From: Ostreococcus lucimarinus
Lineage: Eukaryota
Length of the DNA: 64,000 bases
Reading direction: 5' to 3' (one strand)
NCBI GenBank assembly: GCA_000092065.1
Contig: CP000600.1
The translations under genes were made by a program, and so were the position numbers. Under the pieces are notes generated by a model. That model searched no databases. It was not told the origin of the DNA and saw nothing but the letters and a program-made list of their open reading frames with translations. How positions within the stretch are numbered: the first letter of the stretch is position 1; every line of letters starts with the position of its first letter. Positions 40,032 through 52,683 of the stretch are shown one piece after another.

Positions 40032-42182
40032 CTAGCGTGAGTCGTCGATGTCTCTCATGAATCGGTGAGTGGCTTCTTCTAGCGGAGTTCGTACAACACG
40101 AACGGATTCTCGCGTGAGACGATTGCGGATGCGCATCTTGACGGCGCGCGCTCGAGGCGCGCTCCAATTGTAGCATAGCATATTAGCACAAACCAAAGAT
40201 TCGCCAGGTTGAAGGTTTCGTACGTCGCTCAAGTTGGCTTCCTGCAGTGCCGCGTTACGTGCAATGTGATCAAACCAGCGCGCAGAGTTGAACTGGTGCA
40301 AAACGTGCACCGTCGCGAGCTCGACGAGGGCCTCAGGAATCGCGAATGGGCTCGTCGTGCCGACGACGAGACGCGTGTTTGTCCGATGCATCGTTCGAGC
40401 GGCGTTCACAAGTTGACCAGCAAATCCCGCTCGCGAGCCGAGGCTGAGCAACAGATCCGCGTCATCGATTACGATGAGCTTTTTCGGTGGGGAGCGTCGG
40501 TTCCGTGCGGTCCGTTTCAACGGGAGATCCATTTTTTGAAACATGCTGAGAGCGACTTGGAAGATGGCGTCTACAAAATCCGGCTCGTACTCCGAATGCG
40601 TCACGTCGACGACGTTGAGCGCGTCGACGAGCACGGCTTGTTCGAACACGCGCATCACTACGCCCTCGACGTGAACATTTTCGTAGTTTTCGTAGATGAA
40701 TGATTTGACTTGCTGCGCGCGCGCAAGGAGTAACTGTCCACGACTTCCATCTCTCTGGGCTCTAAAGCTGTCGCACAATCCTTCAAAAAATTGTTTGAAC
40801 GAAGTCCGGTGACGAATCATCTTCAAAATCTGCTCGTCATCTTCTATGCCGAGCATAATGCACAAGTGCTCGCTCGTGAGCGAATTCCATCCGAAAAGTA
40901 GTGGCGAAACCATTCCGACGAAACCATTCCGATCGTACTCGTCGCAGATTTCTGGAGCGCGACTTTCGATATGTTTGGGCGCCGAGAGCACTTTGACATT
41001 AGGCGCGCGACAGTTGGAATTTTTGCCACAGAGCGTTTCCAAATGTAGACTCAAGACGGATAACCCGAGAAAATTCGCAAGCGATGCATCTTTAGAAAAG
41101 GCGTCGGTCGTCGAAGTGCTAAACGTAATCGCCGTCGTCCAGTCCTGTGGCGGGTCAACCATTCCCTGACGCATCAAACAGTTTTCGACGAGTACATCGA
41201 CGGTGTGAGACGTACTCGCCCCGGGTGCGCCGTACACCAGACCACAGAACGGAATGCCGACGTCCATGAACATTTCTCTCTTATCGACGAATTCGTTTTG
41301 CGCAAAATGCTTCGGAACGTCGAACAGCGTTCCCAAGACGGCCATGTCTCGAGCCGTCTCGTCGACTCTGTCGTGGCTCACAAGCGTCGGACGCGCGTCT
41401 CTCCACGCGCGGCCGACTGACCTATCGCACATGTACGCCAACACACTCGCGGCGCCGGCGGACTTGTCTAAAGCGATAGGAGAGGAGTCCGTCCCGTGCT
41501 TCGGCGAAATCTCCGCGCTGTCGTCGAAAACCGGCGCAGGCGACCCCGATCGCTCGCTCCCGGCACTTTCCAGCGCATCATACACATTCCGCACTCGCAC
41601 CGGCGGCGGCGCCTTCTGTTCCACCACGCTCGCAAATTTCGCCGCCTTCGCCGTTTCCTTCGCCGCGTGCGCCAGTTCCTGATGTCGTCTCGTCCGCGCG
41701 TGTTGCAACCAATTATTCGCCAAATTCGCCTCTCCGCTGCCCCGAATCGTCACCGCGCACGTCTCGCACGTCCTCGTCGGGAATTCCAACGCCGATTCCC
41801 CCACCGTCGCGCGCGCTCTCCCTCCCGGCTCCCTCTTCTCGAGCTTCGTCCTTCGTCGCCGCTCCGCGTTCAGCAAGTGTTCCTCCGAGTTCGCGTGTCG
41901 CCCCCACGCCGCGAAGAACTGCTTCTTATCGTCCTCGTTCACCTCGAAGTTCTCGCACAGCGTGCACTTGCGATGGTACTCCCGCTTCGGCGTCGTCTCG
42001 CGCGTCGCGCCGTCGCCGTCGCCGCGGACGCGCGCGCCGCACGCGCCGTCCCGATGTTTCGCGAGCGCTAAACTCGCGAGCGTTTCCGACGCCCCGAAGC
42101 ACACCTCGCCGCACCGCTCGCACGACGCGCACCACGCGTCGTCGTCGTCGCTTTCGTCCGACGTCTCGCTCGACGCGCGCAT
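40032..42182 (-). CDS. Protein with three N-terminal C2H2/U1-matrin-type zinc fingers followed by a large domain with a degenerate P-loop (Walker A lacking the Lys) and a Walker-B-like hhhhDD motif. Family unassigned.
   Basis: ATG at 42182 (MRASSETSDESDDDDAWCASCERCGE). CxxC...H...H units appear in CASCERCGE..HRDGAC, CTLCENFE...HANSEEH and CETCAV...HARTRRH. Downstream are GLVYGAPGASTSHTVDVLVENC (Walker-A-like) and PPKKLIVIDDADLLLS (Walker-B-like). The R-rich first 190 residues of the track ORF are rejected. Confidence 0.5.
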   Translation of the reverse strand: MRASSETSDESDDDDAWCASCERCGEVCFGASETLASLALAKHRDGACGARVRGDGDGATRETTPKREYHRKCTLCENFEVNEDDKKQFFAAWGRHANSEEHLLNAERRRRTKLEKREPGGRARATVGESALEFPTRTCETCAVTIRGSGEANLANNWLQHARTRRHQELAHAAKETAKAAKFASVVEQKAPPPVRVRNVYDALESAGSERSGSPAPVFDDSAEISPKHGTDSSPIALDKSAGAASVLAYMCDRSVGRAWRDARPTLVSHDRVDETARDMAVLGTLFDVPKHFAQNEFVDKREMFMDVGIPFCGLVYGAPGASTSHTVDVLVENCLMRQGMVDPPQDWTTAITFSTSTTDAFSKDASLANFLGLSVLSLHLETLCGKNSNCRAPNVKVLSAPKHIESRAPEICDEYDRNGFVGMVSPLLFGWNSLTSEHLCIMLGIEDDEQILKMIRHRTSFKQFFEGLCDSFRAQRDGSRGQLLLARAQQVKSFIYENYENVHVEGVVMRVFEQAVLVDALNVVDVTHSEYEPDFVDAIFQVALSMFQKMDLPLKRTARNRRSPPKKLIVIDDADLLLSLGSRAGFAGQLVNAARTMHRTNTRLVVGTTSPFAIPEALVELATVHVLHQFNSARWFDHIARNAALQEANLSDVRNLQPGESLVCANMLCYNWSAPRARAVKMRIRNRLTRESVRVVRTPLEEATHRFMRDIDDSR

Positions 42183-42248: not shown

Positions 42249-42980
42249 ATGACGACGCCCGCGATCGACGAGCTCGACGCCGCGCTCGCGCTCGCGGACG
42301 ACGCGCGCGCGGCGGTGGGCGACGTTCAACGCGCGCTGCGCGCGAACGGACGCGACGCGAGGGACGGCGATGCGGTGGCGAACGCGATCCGACGGCTCGC
42401 GCGAACGGCGGAAAAGATCGACGTAACGTGGCGCGCCGTCGTCGCGAGCGATGGGTATCGATCCATGGCGCGCGAGGACGCGTTGGAAGACGGCGAGGCG
42501 CGCGAGGCGCGCGCGGGCGCGCGCGCGCGCGAAGGCGGTGATGGCGACGGGAAGGGCGCGAGCGGTTTGGCGGCGAGCGCGCGCGAGGCGAACGCGCGAG
42601 GCGGCGTGCGAGCGGAAACGTCCGCGGACGACGACGGAACCCTCGTGCGCGTGATCGCGCCCGGTGCGTTCGACGCGCGATGGCGCGCGAACGATCCCGC
42701 GAACGCGGCGACGACGACGGCGCGCGCCGTCGACGGCGGCGTCACCGCCGCGCACGCCGCGCTCTCCGACCGGTTACTCGAATTCGCCGCCGACGCGCTC
42801 GCGCGCGCGGGCGACGCCGAGGCGGCATCGATAGAAATACTCGCCTGGCTCGAGGATCTTCGCGACGTGTTCGTCGTCCCAGATTTCGCGAGCGGCGGCC
42901 GCGTGCTCGCGCCGGACCCGTCTCGCGGCGGCGTCCTCGTCCCCGGTCGCCTCCTCCCCGGTCGCGTCGCTCGCGCGTGA
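42249..42980 (+). CDS. Hypothetical protein (243 aa, Ala/Arg/Asp-rich), divergent from the zinc-finger gene (66 bp between start codons).
   Basis: ATG-initiated ORF with a non-repetitive segment ([30 protein letters not shown]...[23 protein letters not shown]). No homology recognised. It could be a GC-bias ORF. Confidence 0.3.
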
Positions 42981-43275
42981 CGTCGCGTGTAATCGACGCA
43001 TCGCGCCCCCTTTCCATCGCTCGCGCGCGCCGCCGTCTCGTCTCGCGTCGCGCGCCGCGTCGATCGACCCCCCTCGTCGACCGACTCATCGACCGTTAGT
43101 CGTCGGTGCGGTGCAAATCTCATCTCGTCGCGACGGTTCAGGACTCGTCGAACGGATTCGTCAACCGTTCACGGGCCGCGCCCTGTCGCACACCGCGCCG
43201 TCGCCGTCGACGACGACGGCGACGCGCGCGCGCGCGAGCCGCGGACTCTCGGACGGGACGCGTCGCCGTCGCGAG

Positions 43276-46200
43276 ATGGACGCGCGGACGCGCCGCGACG
43301 CCGCGACGCGCGCGCGACGCGAATGCATCGCCCGCGGCCGCGGCGACAACGGCCGCGCGCGCGCGCGCGATGACGCGCGAGGAAGGACGCGCGAGGCGAA
43401 GGGACGGCCGGCGGCGCGCGCGATGGGGGCGAGGCGAACGCGCGGATCGGGACGACGCGGGACGAATCGGCGCGGCGCGGCGCTGGCGACGGCGCTGGCG
43501 ATGGGTCTGACGCTCGCGGTCGAGGGGGCGACGTCGCCGTTTACGTCGCGCGGCGATTTAGATAACGCGATCATGGCGTGTCTGGCGGACGACGAAACGT
43601 TGGCGACGTGCAGGGACAGCGCCGCGACGCCGGTGCCGATTGGCTCGTGGGACGTCGCAGCCATCGTCGACATGTCGAGGTTGTTCGACTCCGGGTCCGT
43701 CGGACGCTTTGTGAACGTCGACATCGGTTTGTGGGACACGTCATCGGTGACCGACATGAACGCCATGTTCAAAGGTCAGACAAACTTCAACCAAGACCTC
43801 AGCACGTGGGACACGTCATCGGTGACGGACATGAGCGGTATGTTCCACGACGCGTCGAGTTTCAATCAGAACATCCCGACGTCGGGAGTACAATGGGACA
43901 CGTCACAAGTCGAGTTCTTTGATACGATGTTCAAAAACGCGGTGGCGTTCAATCAGGACATCAGCTCCTGGGTCGTCAGCGCCGCGGCAAACTTCAATTC
44001 CATGTTCTCTGGAGCGACGAGCTTCAACCAGGACATCACCGGATGGATTGGCGCCAGCGGTGCCTCCGCGGACAATATGTTCTCTGGAGCGACGGCGTGG
44101 CTCAACAACTACGGCCCGACCACAGCGGGCTCAACCACAACCGATGGTCCCGCGAGCGCGTGGGGCAAGTTATGCGCGGCGAACCAGCGCGTGGTTTCGA
44201 ACGCGTGCCAGGCGTGCCCCACCGGGAGCGTGCGCGCCGCGGGCGATAATGCAAAGGGAGTTGACACGGCGTGCGCGTGTCCCGCCAACCATTATTACGT
44301 CTCGGGCGGTGGGTGTTTGGCGTGCGCTAGCGGTCTGTTCCGTCTCGCGGGTGACGTTGCGCCCGGAGGACATACGGCGTGTACGTACGCGTCGCCGTTC
44401 ACGTTGAAGGCCGAACTCGTGAACACGATCGCGTCTTCGTACTGCCTGGGCGGCGCCGCCGCCCCCACCGGAGCTTCGTGTACGGACGGCAAGGGGTTGG
44501 GGATCGCGAATTGGGATGTCAGCGGTGTCAACGACATGGCGGGGTTGTTCCAAGCGTCCAGTTCTAGCTGGACCTCGACCACGTTCAACGCTGATTTGAG
44601 CCTGTGGGACACGTCGTCGGTGGTAGACATGAACAACATGTTCAACGGCGCGACGAGCTTTAACCAGGACATCAGCTCGTGGGACACGTCGTTGGTGGTG
44701 AACATGAACAACATGTTCAACGGCGCGACGAGCTTTAACCAGGACATCAGCTCGTGGGTGACGCAATCGGTGACGGACATGGGCGCGATGTTTGAAAACG
44801 CGGCGGCGTTCGACCAGCCCATCCCGAAGTCGGGATCACAGTGGGACACGACGTTGGTGAAGGACATGAGCAACATGTTCTTCGGCGCAGCGGCGTTTAA
44901 CCAAGACCTCAGCACGTGGGTGACGCAATCGGTGGTGGACATGAGCGCGATGTTTCAAAACGCGCCGCTCTTCAATTATAGTATGGTGACATCGGGTAGC
45001 GTTTGGGACACGTCGTCGGTGACAAACATGGACAACATGTTCAAAGACGCGGTGGCGTTCAACCAGGACATCAGCTCCTGGGTCGTCAGCGCCGTGGCAA
45101 ACTTCAATTCCATGTTCTCTGGAGCGAGGAGCTTCAACCAGGACATCACCAGATGGAATAGCGCCAGCGATGCCTCCGCGGACAATATGTTCTCTGGAGC
45201 GGTAGCGTGGATCACCGACTACGGCCCGATGACAGCGGGCTCAGTCGATGGTCCCGCGAGCGCGTGGGGCAAGATATGCGCGGCGAACCAGCGCATTGTT
45301 TCGAACGCGTGCCAGGCGTGCCCCACCGGGAGCGTGCGCGCCGCGGGCGATAATGCAAAGGGAGAGGACACGGCGTGCGCGTGTCCCGCCAACCATTATT
45401 ACGTCTCGGGCGATGGGTGTTTGGCGTGCGCTAGCGGTCTGTTCCGTCTCGCGGGTGACGTTGCGCCCGGAGGAGATACGGCGTGTACGTACGCGTCGCC
45501 GTTCACGTTGAAGGCCGAACTCGTGAACACGATCGCGTCTTCGTACTGCCTGGGCGCCGCCGCCGCCCCCTCCGGAGCTTCGTGTACGGACGGCAAGGGG
45601 TTGGGGATCGCGAATTGGGATGTCAGCGGTGTCAACGACATGGCGGGGCTGTTCCAAGCGTCCAGCTCTAGCTGGACCTCGACCACGTTCAACGCTGATT
45701 TGAGCTTGTGGAACACGTCGTCGGTGGTGAACATGAACAACATGTTCAACGGCGCGACGAGCTTTAACCAGGACATCAGCTCGTGGAACACGGCGTTGGT
45801 GACGGACATGAACAACATGTTCAACGGCGCGACGAGCTTTAACCAGGACATCAGCTCGTGGAACACGTCGTTGGTGGTGAACATGAACAACATGTTCAAC
45901 GGCGCGACGAGCTTTAACCAGGACATCCGCTCGTGGGTGACGTCGTCGGTGACGGACATGGGCGCGATGTTTGAAAACGCGGCGGCGTTCGACCAGCCCA
46001 TCCCGAAGTCGGGATCACAGTGGGACACGACGTTGGTGAAGGACATGAGCAACATGTTCTTCGGCGCAGCGGCGTTTAACCGAGACCTCAGCACGTGGGT
46101 GACGCAATCGGTGACGGACATGGGCGCGATGTTTCAAAACGCGCCGCTCTTCAATTATGGTATGGTGACATCGGGTAGCGTTTGGGACACGTCATCGGTG

Positions 46201-49200
46201 GCAAACTTCAATTCCATGTTCTCTGGAGCGACGAGCTTTAACCAGGACATCAGCTCGTGGAACACGGCGTTGGTGACGGACATGGACAACATGTTCAAAG
46301 ACGCGGTGGCGTTCAATCAGGACATCAGCTCCTGGGTCGTCAGCGCCGCGGCAAACTTCAATTCCATGTTCTCTGGAGCGACGAGCTTCAACCAGGACAT
46401 CACCGGATGGATTGGCGCCAGCGGTGCCTCCGCGGACAATATGTTCTCTGGAGCGACGGCGTGGCTCAACAACTACGGCCCGACCACAGCGGGCTCAACC
46501 ACAACCGATGGTCCCGCGAGCGCGTGGGGCAAGTTATGCGCGGCGAACCAGCGCGTGGTTTCGAACGCGTGCCAGGCGTGCCCCACCGGGAGCGTGCGCG
46601 CCGCGGGCGATAATGCAAAGGGAGTTGACACGGCGTGCGCGTGTCCCGCCAACCATTATTACGTCTCGGGCGGTGGGTGTTTGGCGTGCGCTAGCGGTCT
46701 GTTCCGTCTCGCGGGTGACGTTGCGCCCGGAGGAGATACGGCGTGTACGTACGCGTCGCCGTTCACGTTGAAGGCCGAACTCGTGAACACGATCGCGTCT
46801 TCGTACTGCCTGGGCGGCGCCGCCGCCCCCACCGGAGCTTCGTGTACGGACGGCAAGGGGTTGGGGATCGCGAATTGGGATGTCAGCGGTGTCAACGACA
46901 TGGCGGGGTTGTTCCAAGCGTCCAGTTCTAGCTGGACCTCGACCACGTTCAACGCTGATTTGAGCCTGTGGGACACGTCGTCGGTGGTAGACATGAGCAA
47001 CATGTTCAACGGCCAGATGGCGTTCAACCAACCCATCCCGACGTCGGGGTCACAATGGAACACGGCGTTGGTGACGGACATGAACAACATGTTCAACGGC
47101 GCGACGAGATTTAACCAGGACATCAGCTCGTGGGACACGTCGTTGGTGGTGAACATGAACAACATGTTCAACGGCGCGACGAGCTTTAACCAGGACATCA
47201 GCTCGTGGGTGACGCAATCGGTGACGGACATGGGCGCGATGTTTGAAAACGCGGCGGCGTTCGACCAGCCCATCCCGAAGTCGGGATCACAGTGGGACAC
47301 GACGTTGGTGAAGGACATGAGCAACATGTTCTTCGGCGCAGCGGCGTTTAACCAAGACCTCAGCACGTGGGTGACGCAATCGGTGGTGGACATGAGCGCG
47401 ATGTTTCAAAACGCGCCGCTCTTCAATTATAGTATGGTGACATCGGGTAGCGTTTGGGACACGGCGTTGGTGACGGACATGAACAACATGTTCAACGGCG
47501 CGACGAGATTTAACCAGGACATCAGCTCGTGGGACACGTCGTCGGTGGTGAACATGAACAACATGTTCAACGGCGCGACGAGCTTTAACCAGAACATCAG
47601 CTCGTGGAACACGGCGTTGGTGACGGACATGGGCGCGATGTTTCAAAGCGCGGTGGCGTTCAACCAACCCATCCCGAAGTCGGGATCACAGTGGGACACG
47701 TCGTTGGTGACAAACATGAACAACATGTTCGGCGGTGCCACGGCGTTCAACCAGGACATCGGCTCCTGGGTCGTCAGCGCCGTGGCAAACTTCGATTCCA
47801 TGTTCTCTGGAGCGACGAGCTTTAACAAGAACATCACCGGATGGATTGGCGCCGGCGGTGCCTCCGCAAACAACATGTTCTCTGGAGCGACGGCGTGGAT
47901 CGCGAGGTACGAGCACACGTCCAATCCTGGCAACAGCTTTCATGGTCCCGCGTCGGCTTGGACTGGTCCCGTTCCGTTTGCCAACTTGGCCGCTTTGCAA
48001 ACCGCCGTGACCAATTGCTTGAACAGCGCTCCGTCCGGCGCGTGCACGTGCTCGCCCAGTGTCGACTGCGGCGCCGCGCTGTACGAACCGATCACAAACT
48101 GGGACACGAGTCTGGTCGCCGACATGAATGCTTTGTTCCAAAGCGCCACTCTTTTCAACGCCAACATTGGATCGTGGAATACCGAGCAGGTGACGAGAAT
48201 GGACAACATGTTTAGCGGCGCGGCTGCGTTCAACCAGCCAATTGGCAGTTGGAACGTCACCGCGGTCACCGATGCGAGCCATATGTTTCAGGGCGCTACG
48301 GCTTTTGTTCACGACATCACCGGTTGGGTTTTATCGCAGACGCCCCAGGCGAATGTGACGTCAATGTTTGTCAATGCGATAGCATGGATAAACGAGCGTG
48401 ATCGTATAGACGGATCCGCGTCTCTCGACGGTCCACCCTCGGCGTGGTACACGCCGGCGCCGCCGCCGCCGCCGTCACCGCCGCCACCCCCGCCACCAAC
48501 GTGCGGTAACGGTGTCTACGATGCCGCTGGTACGAACCCAGATGGAACTCTTGGGGAGACGTGTGAACCGTACGGGAATTCCATCGATAACACCGTTCTC
48601 GTGCAGGGTTGCGATCCAGCCACGTGCGCGCCTTTTGAGAACTGGCAGTGCAACGATCCGTCTACGATCGGCACACCAGATTACAACTGTACGTGCAACA
48701 ATCCCGCAGGCACGTACGCGTTACCAGATGTCAATTTTTGCGCGCGCGTGAAATGCGTTTACGCAGATCGATGTCTCTCCGAAGGCCGCGGCTGCGCGCC
48801 TGGTGCTGGTGGCAACGCGTGCGACCGTTGCTACACGGCGCAAGACATCGTCGATCTCGGATTGGAAGCTTCTCTAGCCAAAGCGGGTTACTACAAAACG
48901 GGCCAAACGTGCACTGAGTGCCCTGGGACCTCGGCAGGTCAACTCTTCGCTGCCGCTACGCTTGTAGTCGTTCTGGCGTTCTTTGGTTTCAAAGCTTCGC
49001 AAGTCATGGGCCCTCAAGCGACAAACAACTTGAAGAAGATTATCGAATCTTTGCAGTTTTTTTCGCTTTCGCTGAGTATGGACATCAAATGGCCTGGCCC
49101 GGTACTTAACCTCGGCAAGTACTTGGAAGCTTTCACGTTCAGCGTCGACTTTCTGAGACCAGAGTGCGTGGCTACTGGTCTCAATTGGCTCAATATTTTC

Positions 49201-52200
49201 CTAGCGTCTGTGTTTGTTGTCCCTGCACTTATCTTTTTCATCATCGTCTTCAACAACTTCAGATCAAGGCGACGGTTCGAACGAACAGTGCGTTCAATTC
49301 ACTGCGAACGGCGCGATGGAGGTGCGATGGTATACTGGATTGAAAGACCGGGTCGTTTGTGGGGCATAAGGCGCACGTTCGAATCCAAAGGAGGAGATAA
49401 AATTGTCAAGGAATTGCAGAGGCAATACCGCTTCCGAGCCTCCCTCAGAAGCTTTGGCGTGTTGTCCATGACTGTGTTATACCTGCCCATAGTCCGTATG
49501 TGCCTCCAGGCTTTCGACTGTCTCGAAATAGACGGTATCGAGAGCACGCGTCTAGAACACGACATCGACATCGATTGCGAGAGTACTTCTCATGTGACAA
49601 TCCAGGCGGCGGCGGCGGTTATGTTGGCCATCGTCGGAATCGGTATGCCGATTTACGTCATCTCACAAGTGCGGAAACTTTCAAATACGGGGAAGTTAGA
49701 TGATCCACAAACCATCGACGCATACGGTCCATTCTACGATATATATCGTAGAGAAGATCTTACGTATTCGCACAAATTGGAGATTGCCAGACTTCGACAA
49801 ACGACGGTTCGCTCGAGATCTATTCCTCGCGGTAGCGACGATGAAGACGATCGCGAAGAAACGACGTTTGATACCGAAACTGAGCGTGTCGCTGATGAAA
49901 TTGAAAACGATATCAGACAAGATATTGAGGAACCAAACGAAGGCACTTCGTTGGAAACTACCGATGGACCCACTGACGACGTCGAGCAAGGTGAAGATTT
50001 CAACCCTGAACTCGGGAAGAAGAAAGTTTTTGGTAAAGGAAGAAAGTCAAAAGACGGGCGCTTAGCTCAAGTATTATCTATGAGTAAGTCAATGTTGCAG
50101 CGCACTCCGTCTGCGCAAGCGCGCGAGCGCGTGAAAAAGATGAGCTGGAAAGATCGGTTCTCAGTGTATTACCTCTCGGTGGAATTATGCCAGAAGAGCG
50201 GTGTCATTCTCATGACTTCGCCCTTCATCAGCGCTTCGCCTCTCAGTGGCTGGGGCCTTGTATTCATCCACTGGTTCCTCGGCATTTTCGTCTACATTTG
50301 TCAACCTTGGAGAATAATCACGTTGAGTTTCTTCGGTTTTAAGGTGTCAAATTGTCTGAACAAAGTCGAAACTATGGCGGCGTTCCTGCAAGGTGTGACG
50401 CCCGCCTTGGCGATGATATGGCCAGTTAAGCGAGACGCTGACGGCATCGTGCAGGAAAGTTTCACGCTCGAGATGATGACTGGTCTTATGACTGCCATCA
50501 TCACGGGTTTACTCGCTATTCGCATCATCGTATTCGTCGGGGAACGCGTCGCGGTCAAACGCGCAAAGATGGACATCGACAAGGAACCCGAAGCATGCAT
50601 TGAGATTGTTCGTGAACGACTCGTCGAGATGGCGAAGAAACGTGCGGTCGTGAGCTTGTTCGCGTTCAAGGCAGACTTTGATATAACACGGCGCAAAGCG
50701 CGGGCGAGAATAGAGATCACGCGTCAAGCTATGTTGACTAGAATCGACACTTTGAAGTCGGAGATGGCTAGCACCGAAGGTCAGGGTATCGATTACACGG
50801 AGCAAATCACGGCCTTGTATGAAGTGGCGAATCAGATGGCACATATCGTGAATACCGTTGTACCGATGCCTCCACCTGTTGGGCCTGCTGTAGAGGAGCG
50901 TATAGACGCTCTCGAGGCGCAGTTGTCGAAACTTTCCGTGGCCGAGGACGAACGCTACGTCGCCGCACGACAAGAGTCAGAGCCGTCGCCGAACGCTGCG
51001 GCAATGCACATAATTTTCAAGGTGCACATCGTCGATTGCATCGTTGCACAAGTCAACGAACAGCTTGAAGTATACGCGAGTGCAGAGTTAGTGAGCGATT
51101 TAGCCGTTCTTGGACGACGACATGCCGAGTTGTTGAGCGAGCAGAGCGCCATAACTTCTCAATTCGGCGACTCCGAGCTTCGTGCAACTTCAGACGAGTT
51201 ATCTTCATCAGCCGTTCCGTTACTAGAAGCGAACGAACGTGATGACTTCGAAAAGGTATCTTCCACGCTCCATCACTGTGCGAGCGTCATCGATGCGCAC
51301 GCGCAGTGGTGTATGACGCAGAGCGAGCTGTTCAGTGGCCTCAAGAGGGAGCACCCTACTTTCCTTCCGGACGAACCACCATTGACAACGGAGTGCTTCG
51401 AATCGTGCATCAAAGATCTGAAGACACATGAAAAGCAGATGGAGTTAGTTAGGACGCAGTGCATCAGCGACTGGCTTCCAATGTTCAAACATTTCGGTTG
51501 CGTCAAGTATCTCAGAGGGTTCGCCGAGCAGATTCGTAATCAACTCAGTCTCAATCTCAATGGAGAGATCACGCCAGAAGAAGCCAAGGTGGTGTATGAT
51601 GACACCGTTGCCTTCATGGATGGCTTCGCCTCGTGGTGTGCAGATTTGTGTGGCATAATCGAAACGTCAGACGTTTTCAATGAGTTTCAACCCATCGCCT
51701 CGGCCATGATGAAGAGCCTGAAGGTGATACAGATCGACGCTAAGAAGCAAAGCATGCTCGCTCAAAAAGTACTGTCGGCCGTCGACTATGCTTTGGCGCA
51801 GAAGTCCACCGCAGAGGCCGTGCGAAATAATTTGCAGCAGGCGTTGCGCGATTTAACGTCGAAAATGGAGGAGCATCTTGCCGTTCAGATGGATGAAATG
51901 AAGAATGAGAAGATCGCTCTCGAGAGAGCGTATGAAGAAGAAAAGGTGCAAACCGAGGAGGACATCAACGTCCTCGAGAAAACGTTCGCTGAGAGAAAGG
52001 CCACGATGGAGCGCGAATTTGCACTGCAGCGCGACATAGTCGAACGATTACTCGTCATGAAGCAAGAAGAGAAGGCCGCGGTCGCTCCGTCTTTGAACCC
52101 ATTCAGACGCGTACGCTTCGAGTACGAAAACGAGCTCGCGAGCGCCAATAAGGAGTGCCTCAGGATCTCACGAGCCTTGGAGAGAGAAGAGAACGTGAAA

Positions 52201-52683
52201 AATATGCAGTGTGAAAACTTGCTTCGAGCGATGCAGCAAACCGAGCGTCAGCTGCGAGCGCAGATTAAAATCCACGATTCACTCATGGCAAAGATGGAAG
52301 CCGATGTCTTGGATCACCTCAAAAAGCAAGGCAACGTGGCGCAAAAGCGAACGGCTCACGATATCGCGGCGAACAAGGCCGTGCTCGCGTCGCGAAAAGC
52401 CATCTATAAGCAGCAACGTATCGCTGCACAGCTGTACGTATCCGTAGAACGCGAGACTACGAGAGCTCAAGTCGGTCTCACGAGAACGAAACTTGCGGTG
52501 GCTAAACGTAAAGGGCTGCTTGTACGCACAACCTCGCGCCTGACGGGAAAATCCCTGCGGTCAAAATCGCGAAAGAAAGCGCACGACGAAAACGAGACGG
52601 TCAAAGACGATCAACAAGAAAAGGAGGTTGAAGATCAAACCGCGGTTGATGAAAAAAGCAACGTCACGGAGACGAAGACGTAA
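43276..52683 (+). CDS. Giant (about 3,100 aa) single-exon surface protein. Domain order: signal peptide, long arrays of DUF285 (PF03382-like, 'Mycoplasma' 26-aa) repeats interleaved with a Cys-rich module, a poly-Pro linker, an EGF/TNFR-like Cys-rich stalk, a multi-pass TM region, then a coiled-coil cytoplasmic tail of about 900 aa. Alternative start at the ATG at 43423.
   Basis: A signal-like segment, [20 protein letters not shown], is followed by more than 40 repeats of [MF]FxxAxxFNQDIS[ST]WDTSxVTDMxxMF. The Cys-rich module [59 protein letters not shown] recurs. [15 protein letters not shown] tract (about 48455-48500) precedes the Cys-rich stalk PTCGNGVYD...CTECPG. Hydrophobic helices follow, starting with [16 protein letters not shown], at about 48950-50560. 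A long E/K/Q/L-rich heptad region runs from about 50600 to 52680. The R-rich residues before 43276 are likely not coding. Confidence 0.8.
43700..47900 (+). repeat. Higher-order tandem repeat array inside the giant gene. The 78-bp DUF285 units are organised into three nearly identical segmental copies: about 44100-45200, 45200-46458 and 46458-47900.
   Basis: Long identical strings recur. 'ctacggcccgaccacagcgggctcaaccacaaccgatggtcccgcgagcgcgtggggcaagttatgcgcggcgaaccagcgcgtggtttcgaacgcgtgccaggcgtgccccaccgggagcgtgcgcgccgcgggcgataatgcaaagggag' occurs at about 44110 and 46470, with a near-identical copy at about 45210. The roughly 170-bp string beginning 'gcggtggcgttcaatcaggacatcagctcctgggtcgtcagcgccgcggcaaacttcaattccatgttctctggagcgacgagcttcaaccaggacatcaccggatgg' occurs at about 43935 and 46300. 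Confidence 0.9.

Follow-up and report, generated by a model that had tools for sequence, protein, structure and literature searches.

Our analysis of a 64,000-nucleotide stretch of Ostreococcus lucimarinus DNA (contig CP000600.1; hereafter, the window) revealed a complete coding sequence on the minus strand, at positions 40032 to 42182 (716 amino acids [aa] plus the stop codon, as taken from the open reading frame [ORF] list and its translation), for a protein that joins putative zinc fingers to an apparently inactive HerA-like domain. More specifically, a P-loop domain of the HerA/FtsK superfamily, of the eukaryotic clade-6 or Mad8-like kind and catalytically eroded, occupies residues 296 to 695 (40098 to 41297, on the minus strand, as are all features of this gene given below). 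We propose, with a probability of roughly 0.72, that this zinc-finger and clade-6 HerA-like protein has lost catalysis and would be kept as a non-enzymatic, nucleic-acid-tethered module, its predicted parts being, in order, three N-terminal zinc fingers, a linker of ~125 residues, an FtsK/HerA domain of ~400 residues, and a degenerate C-terminal signature. An earlier note on this DNA had left the family unassigned; it can now be assigned to the eukaryotic clade-6 HerA-like family (PMC10853773).

Taken by itself, the full-length protein produced no usable match in Pfam, PDB sequences, or NCBIfam, and no OST-HTH, winged helix-turn-helix (wHTH), HAS-barrel, or other Pfam domain was found in it at E ≤ 10. 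A word-indexed homology search returned only three sequences, all near-identical, when given the single protein, four when given a full-length alignment of 60 sequences, and ten when given the trimmed domain alignment; the full-length alignment performed poorly because low-complexity N-termini swamped the candidate list. By means of an exhaustive HMMER search of 1.84 billion representative sequences, we obtained 542 relatives at E ≤ 1e-3 (194 of them at E ≤ 1e-10), nearly all of which align to residues ~300 to 690 of the query. Named relatives include ORY51411.1 of the chytrid Rhizoclosmatium globosum, KAH7398931.1 of the ascomycete Phaeosphaeria, and EP00047_P024334 of the choanoflagellate Mylnosiga fluctuans. 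Nearly all of the members read that span the Walker A region show GVQG[SA]GKSH[TS], hhhhDEAH[KR][YF], and RLMRHxGxRxxxSTQSP, in the same order. The conserved part of the C-terminal region amounts to ~400 aa (residues 296 to 695), preceded by a mostly low-complexity linker of ~125 aa, and not to the domain of ~500 aa that the earlier note had delineated.

The domain was assigned by means of a profile of 20 sequences, with the query first, and of an AlphaFold domain model built from the same alignment. Only HerA-type chains in the PDB were matched by the profile: ten HerA-type entries had E ≤ 5e-4, including DUF87, Sir2-HerA, DUF4297-HerA, YjgR, and TdpA proteins, with Sulfolobus HerA 4d2i at E = 5e-9, DUF87 8yho at E = 2e-7, and Sir2-HerA 8xau at E = 2.4e-7. 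Consistently, the model of the query domain was confident (predicted local distance difference test [pLDDT] 84.8; predicted template modeling score [pTM] 0.89), and the top 50 chains that Foldseek retrieved with it from the PDB all belong to the HerA family (best E = 8e-12). The domain has a RecA-like ASCE (additional strand, catalytic glutamate) core that is structurally closest to HerA/VirB4/TrwB/FtsK, so that the P-loop fold supposed from the sequence stands, with the HerA family as its match. Among Pfam models, HerA_C was found below threshold in 18 of the 60 members and DUF87 in 3 of the 60. The PADLOC model mad8 (PDLC04140) matched the query at E = 6.3e-12 over residues 315 to 668 (model positions 31 to 290 of 314), and matched active eukaryotic relatives at values down to E = 6.5e-21 over nearly the whole model, including its C-terminal end; active relatives were also matched by the PADLOC HerA models. 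An origin from viral packaging ATPases was considered and rejected, as the best BFVD match was a phage HerA_C protein and the A32-like ATPases of giant viruses matched far worse (template modeling scores of 0.2 to 0.3).

Within the P-loop domain, the AlphaFold model places a four-helix insert at residues 437 to 494 (40701 to 40874), with helices at domain residues 142 to 149, 155 to 162, 167 to 180, and 184 to 199, between two core strands; this region is conserved in the active relatives and reduced in P0004 and P0006. A four-helical P-loop insert is among the features given for the eukaryotic "clade-6" HerA/FtsK ATPases in their computational description (PMC10853773; Nucleic Acids Res 2024;52:1005), together with a C-terminal extension hxhxxRxRhsxDsGx[ST], an N-terminus that in most members derives from a wHTH, and no linkage to nucleases. 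Because the C-terminal signature of the relatives found here, the four-helix insert in the query model, and the OST-HTH/LOTUS domain (a wHTH) found at the N-terminus of 5 of the 60 members match that description, the assignment of the window domain to the FtsK/HerA superfamily, and to its eukaryotic clade-6 HerA-like family, is secure. The window protein shares with clade 6 homology across the whole 400-aa domain, the four-helix insert, the C-terminal R-x-R-[LI]-T strand, and the lack of nuclease linkage. In contrast to clade-6 members, in which GVQG[SA]GKSHT, DEAH, STQSP, and the complete ...DsGx[ST] tail are intact, it has lost the Lys, the Glu, the Gln, and half of the tail, and it carries three zinc fingers where the N-terminus of most members is wHTH-derived or LOTUS; few members of the family are as divergent. 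Its Walker A, Walker B (DEAH/EEAH), and R...SxQxP segments are likewise collinear with those of the HerA translocases (HerA-NurA, Sir2-HerA, and DUF4297-HerA), but identity to these is 10 to 17%, no HAS-barrel was detected in the protein, and no nuclease, Sir2, or NurA partner is encoded nearby; as the catalytic residues of the HerA type have been lost, ATP-driven ring translocation is unlikely.

The erosion of the active site was read from the alignments and a motif table. The Walker A remnant GAPGASTSHT (residues 318 to 327; 41202 to 41231) aligns column for column with the family motif GVQG[SA]GKSHT and carries Q320P, G323S, and K324T, and the Walker B remnant LIVIDDADLL (residues 569 to 578; 40449 to 40478) aligns in the same manner with hhhhDEAH[KR][YF], with D573 kept and E574D and H576D exchanged. 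The earlier note had recognized both stretches, the first as a Walker A lacking its Lys; judged by these alignments, they are indeed true degenerate Walker motifs and not chance look-alikes. The post-Walker B segment RTMHRTNTRLVVGTTSP (residues 596 to 612; 40347 to 40397) corresponds to the family motif RLMRHxGxRxxxSTQSP and aligns with the HerA segment "AREGRKFGVGLTIVSQRP"; R596 and R604 are retained, R599 and H600 are swapped, and S608G and Q610T are exchanged. At the end of the domain, the C-terminal signature VKMRIRNRLTRESVRV (residues 681 to 696; 40095 to 40142) retains the first half of hxhxxRxRhsxDsGx[ST], hxhxxRxRhs, as an RxRLT strand, and has lost the DsGx[ST] half through D→E, G→V, and [ST]→V. 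The family consensus ends in VxIRxRLTxDxGxS, with R686 and T690 invariant in 60 sequences, and in the sister lineages the sequence ends directly after RxRxT-G.

A sequencing error behind the Lys-less P-loop, a possibility that the earlier note had raised, is ruled out, as GAPG[AV]STSHT is present in 20 of 20 Ostreococcus-clade sequences from independent environmental assemblies. The other zinc-finger lineages have eroded differently: P0004/P0156 (33% identity; three fingers) show GAPGSGVSHT and retain DEAH, P0006 (29% identity) shows GLQNSGMSHT and DDAE, and P0015 retains GKS with its Walker B replaced by LDKFEG. The Lys position is thus occupied by T, V, or M according to the lineage, and such differing replacements are the pattern expected when an active site is no longer selected. 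In a neighbor-joining (NJ) tree, the sequences that have fingers but no Lys group together to the exclusion of all others and are the most divergent of the family (mean distance to active members of 0.76 to 0.82, versus a median of 0.57); that they have fingers in common speaks for a single origin. The suspicion that the combination of parts is lineage-specific appears justified, since the zinc-finger and ATPase protein in its present form is confined to this small clade, probably Mamiellales. Outside it, the fingerless P0054 (760 aa) shows GAQGSGQSHT, with Lys replaced by Gln, and LEDAH in place of DEAH; its lysine loss is an independent erosion event.

In P-loop ATPases, it is the Lys of Walker A that touches the beta and gamma phosphates, and Mg and the attacking water are held by the two acidic residues of Walker B; we infer that the window protein cannot power translocation through ATP hydrolysis. 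An inactive pseudo-ATPase scaffold, as had been suggested before any relative was at hand, is the most reasonable reading, given relatives with canonical GKS and DEAH and the decay of both motifs here. It is quite unlikely that the protein is instead a still-active nucleoside triphosphatase (NTPase), a HerA/FtsK-like translocase with a non-canonical P-loop in which another basic residue, or one supplied in trans, stands in for the Walker lysine. Such an enzyme would account for the kept fold, for the kept residues Ser325, His326, Thr327, Asp573, R596, and R604, and for purifying selection on parts of the domain; however, K324T, E574D, and Q610T changed together, along with the P-loop glycine (G323S), and sister lineages show V or M in place of the Lys, or a lost Walker B instead, a variety better explained by a relaxation of selection on the active site than by new conserved chemistry.

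N-terminal to the linker, three candidate zinc fingers were recognized in the translation, fingers 2 and 3 also by regular expression. Putative finger 1 (residues 18 to 48; 42039 to 42131) reads CxxCxxC-x18-H-x4-C, is CCHC-like, and had no Pfam match; its Cys and His positions are retained in P0002 and P0004. Finger 2 (residues 73 to 102; 41877 to 41966) reads CxxC-x18-H-x5-H, with no significant Pfam match, and finger 3 (residues 139 to 167; 41682 to 41768) reads CxxC-x17-H-x5-H. All four zinc ligands are invariant in 11 finger units across four lineages. Three U1/matrin-like fingers of the form CxxC...Hx5-6H had been described in the earlier note: fingers 2 and 3 fit that pattern, finger 1 does not, and the U1/matrin type itself received no statistical support (best E = 0.16). 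More specifically, neither zf-C2H2_jaz nor zf-U1, the Pfam models singled out for this check, nor any other finger model exceeded its gathering threshold on the window protein; the best score was that of zf-met (E = 0.16; 12.8 bits versus a cut-off of 21.2), confined to finger 3 and followed on the same finger by the CIZ1-like zf-C2H2_14 (E = 0.21), and both of these matches cover the helix only. Similarly, a finger profile compared with the PDB matched SF3A2, ZNF622, and ZMAT2 at the helix with E values of 0.28 to 4.6, all of them non-significant. Fingers 2 and 3 resemble U1/matrin/JAZ fingers in their CxxC...H-x5-H pattern and in placing an aromatic residue three positions ahead of the first His, whereas the Cys-to-His spacer of 17 to 18 residues (versus ~12 in U1/matrin fingers) and the C-x2-C-x2-C...H-x4-C ligand set of finger 1 set the window protein apart. 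Fingers of the zf-U1, zf-met, and zf-C2H2_jaz types bind RNA or double-stranded RNA (dsRNA). A U1-like typing of the window fingers is reasonable but unproven.

Fingers also occur in catalytically intact members of the family, as P0078, P0020, P0055, P0071, and P0023 each have one or two C2H2 fingers at the N-terminus. The single, canonical-looking finger of P0078, CEICDLHMSDANKGSHLRGKKH, scored just under threshold with zf-C2H2_jaz (E = 6.4e-4) and zf-U1 (E = 6.7e-4), and the P0020 finger matched zf-met at E = 9.5e-3. To judge by these predicted architectures, the pairing of finger and ATPase is a recurring theme of the eukaryotic HerA-like family, which seems to combine its ATPase repeatedly with modules of an RNA-binding type.

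The linker (residues 168 to 295; 41298 to 41681), delimited by reading the sequence, is mostly of low complexity and lies outside the region common to the wider family. It contains a motif, N-x-[YF]-D-A-L (residues 199 to 204; 41571 to 41588), that all members of the zinc-finger clade read (the query, P0004, P0006, and P0015) have conserved and that may be a short linear interaction motif.

We then considered whether the protein might belong to a mobile or selfish element and serve the propagation of that element. This possibility appears rather improbable, even though PMC10853773 uses the wording "novel genomic elements" for the eukaryotic clade, evolution of the gene is fast, and the Ostreococcus and P0006 loci share no synteny. 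The gene is present in one copy in the 64-kb window, between ordinary host genes (Rer1, 2-oxoglutarate [2OG] oxygenase, cardiolipin synthase, and glutathione S-transferase [GST]), and its flanks are the same in a relative that is 84% identical, namely the L002 orthologue, which has cardiolipin synthase on one side and a 243-aa ORF on the other. The P0006 locus (L004, 4952 to 6802), that of a distant zinc-finger orthologue, likewise lies among housekeeping genes (MatE, syntaxin, bestrophin, and HSP90), on a contig of 54% GC. The loss of catalysis also speaks against a role as a transfer motor; these points against a mobile element were gathered without a systematic search for bounding repeats.

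To assess retention, we calculated ratios of nonsynonymous to synonymous substitution rates (dN/dS) by the Nei-Gojobori method against two orthologues (L002 and L003); as these sequences are few and closely related, the values are rough. Residues 566 to 695 gave 0.21 and 0.23, residues 341 to 426 gave 0.67 and 1.27, and residues 427 to 565 gave ~1 in one of the two comparisons. Consistently, amino-acid diversity among 20 sequences was 0.23 to 0.25 at residues 376 to 425 (40908 to 41057), the most variable patch of the domain, versus 0.00 to 0.06 at residues 576 to 700, with residues 601 to 625 almost invariant; AlphaFold confidence is lower around residues 376 to 425. Among the full-length members read, drawn from clusters of 168 and 22 sequences, none has a broken ORF. 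The gene is thus maintained, with a conserved C-terminal third, a fast-evolving remainder, and one variable patch.

That the gene is instead decaying, as an incipient pseudogene or an ORF miscalled in GC-rich DNA with no function kept, is very unlikely. Such a view could invoke the whole-gene dN/dS of 0.5 to 0.7 and the values near 1 noted above, the lack of an NCBI or UniProt record for the exact protein when both flanking genes have one, and the many long spurious ORFs in this GC-rich DNA. Against it, the 716-codon frame and its start are intact in many independent environmental sequences, homologues of 29 to 33% identity retain the architecture and all zinc ligands, residues 566 to 695 evolve at a dN/dS of 0.2 with residues 601 to 625 hardly varying, and the protein aligns collinearly with a family of 542 members. 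A pseudo-ATPase of the AAA+ (ORC/Cdc6) or STAND (KAP/NACHT) type, the kinship offered in the earlier note, is extremely unlikely: degenerate Walker motifs are generic and AAA_22 and AAA gave sub-threshold Pfam matches in a few relatives, but neither group matched the query, the profile met only HerA-type chains in the PDB, AAA+/STAND topology was not found, and both the four-helix insert and the STQSP/ATQRP-type motif that follows Walker B are features of HerA/FtsK proteins.

Several points weigh against a retained, tethered, non-enzymatic protein: (i) the whole-gene dN/dS is high (0.52 and 0.69 in the two comparisons, relative to 0.09 for a control, the adjacent cardiolipin synthase fragment, in L002 only and at similar dS), which leaves the gene only weakly constrained beyond its C-terminal third; (ii) no zinc-finger Pfam model was significant on the window protein, whether the full-length sequence or single fingers were searched, and both the zinc binding and the nucleic-acid binding of the fingers are putative; (iii) loss of ATPase activity is deduced from the motifs, and some P-loop proteins without the Walker Lys still bind nucleotide; (iv) the zinc-finger clade of the NJ tree could be inflated by long-branch attraction; and (v) the full-length AlphaFold model, built from three sequences, reached a pLDDT of 30 and was unusable, so that it gives no structural statement on the fingers or the linker, and neither the arrangement of fingers and ATPase domain nor any oligomer.

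With these points in mind, we still favor a retained non-enzymatic module. ATP hydrolysis would have been lost, and ATP binding would probably be poor. The domain would persist in a form that is probably still oligomeric and possibly ring-forming, while the zinc fingers would tether the protein to nucleic acid, replacing the wHTH/LOTUS-type N-terminus of the active relatives, and the conserved C-terminal face (residues 566 to 695, with the RxRLT strand) would engage a partner. The resulting role would be that of an adaptor, scaffold, or sensor, not of a translocase.

A more specific version of this role can be built on the kinship with Mad8, whose gene is needed for phage resistance by MADS, the methylation-associated defence system (bioRxiv 10.1101/2023.03.30.534895). 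In our searches, mad8 was the best library hidden Markov model for the query itself, and Mad8 is the nearest bacterial profile of the family. In contrast, mad8 belongs to a bacterial eight-gene operon that includes a methyltransferase, and partners of the mad1-7 type (methyltransferase, kinase, and specificity subunit) are not among the neighbors of the window gene; moreover, the window protein is of eukaryotic origin, has zinc fingers joined to its ATPase domain, and lacks catalytic residues. Mad8 kinship, fast evolution, and the variable patch would together fit a part in conflicts with viruses or selfish elements. We mention, as an unlikely speculation, that the protein may descend from a defence ATPase of the Mad8/HerA type, now domesticated and catalytically dead, and may serve as a scaffold that senses prasinoviruses or other selfish nucleic acids for immunity or acts as a decoy for them. 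In that event, the fingers would recognize RNA or dsRNA of viruses, an effector would be recruited by the conserved C-terminal face, and residues 376 to 425 would be the surface of an arms race with viral proteins; if true, eukaryotes would here possess an immune component that they inherited from a bacterial anti-phage system, or have in common with one, and that needs no ATP hydrolysis.

With regard to the gene itself, the 716-codon ORF runs from 42182 to 40032 without interruption, and the Met at 42182 is taken as the start, being common to the orthologues P0002 and P0004. A longer, GTG-initiated ORF reaching 42755 was rejected as an artefact of GC-rich sequence, as the Met at 42182 matches the start of the orthologues. 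The identical 716-aa protein is also predicted on one Logan contig. The window is GC-rich eukaryotic DNA with closely spaced, intronless genes, including those for Rer1, a homeodomain-PHD protein, a pectinacetylesterase, and a WD40 protein. The gene, single-copy within the window, lies at a nuclear locus, its neighbors being the four host genes named above and one for a giant repeat protein. Two flanking proteins are found exactly in RefSeq for O. lucimarinus CCE9901 (GST, XP_001422691.1; 2OG oxygenase, XP_001422529.1), which assigns the window to this alga or to a strain almost identical to it. The 168-member cluster of the 716-aa protein consists of metagenome and Logan sequences only, with no NCBI or UniProt accession. 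The gene may thus be missing from the reference annotation, or modeled otherwise in it, and its description here is to that extent a modest gain for annotation.

Two neighboring ORFs were recorded in addition. A divergent 243-aa ORF (42249 to 42980, plus strand) lies only 66 bp away from where translation of the zinc-finger gene starts and overlaps the spurious GTG-initiated extension rejected above. Without any Pfam domain, it occupies the same position in L001 and L002 and has a dN/dS of 0.94, and it is either very fast-evolving or else not a genuine coding gene. A 3190-aa ORF (43111 to 52683, plus strand) adjoins the gene and contains dozens of tandem repeats of the "FNQDISSW[DN]TSxVxxMxxMF" type, DUF285/BspA-like by eye, the copies of which hardly differ in protein sequence. 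Cys-rich modules that recur, a hydrophobic multi-pass region, and a long, charged coiled-coil tail are also present in it.

Searches of the literature for HerA with LOTUS, OST-HTH with HerA, and HerA with Mamiellales yielded nothing specific, the OST-HTH paper makes no mention of an ATPase fusion, and the accessible part of the supplementary listing of PMC10853773 contains no Mamiellales, chytrid, or Capsaspora names. As far as this literature goes, the inactive zinc-finger form, whose clade is probably Mamiellales, is an undescribed variant of a known family. That family, which is widespread in fungi, choanoflagellates, algae, and other protists, was mentioned only in passing in the 2024 paper. 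The long maintenance of the Ostreococcus protein after decay of its ATPase site implies that at least part of the role of the family needs no ATP hydrolysis. The substitution of zinc fingers for the usual wHTH/LOTUS N-terminus suggests that what stays constant is the recognition of nucleic acid. As the close relative Ostreococcus tauri is amenable to genetics and has well-studied viruses, this variant is a practical entry point to the function of the family.

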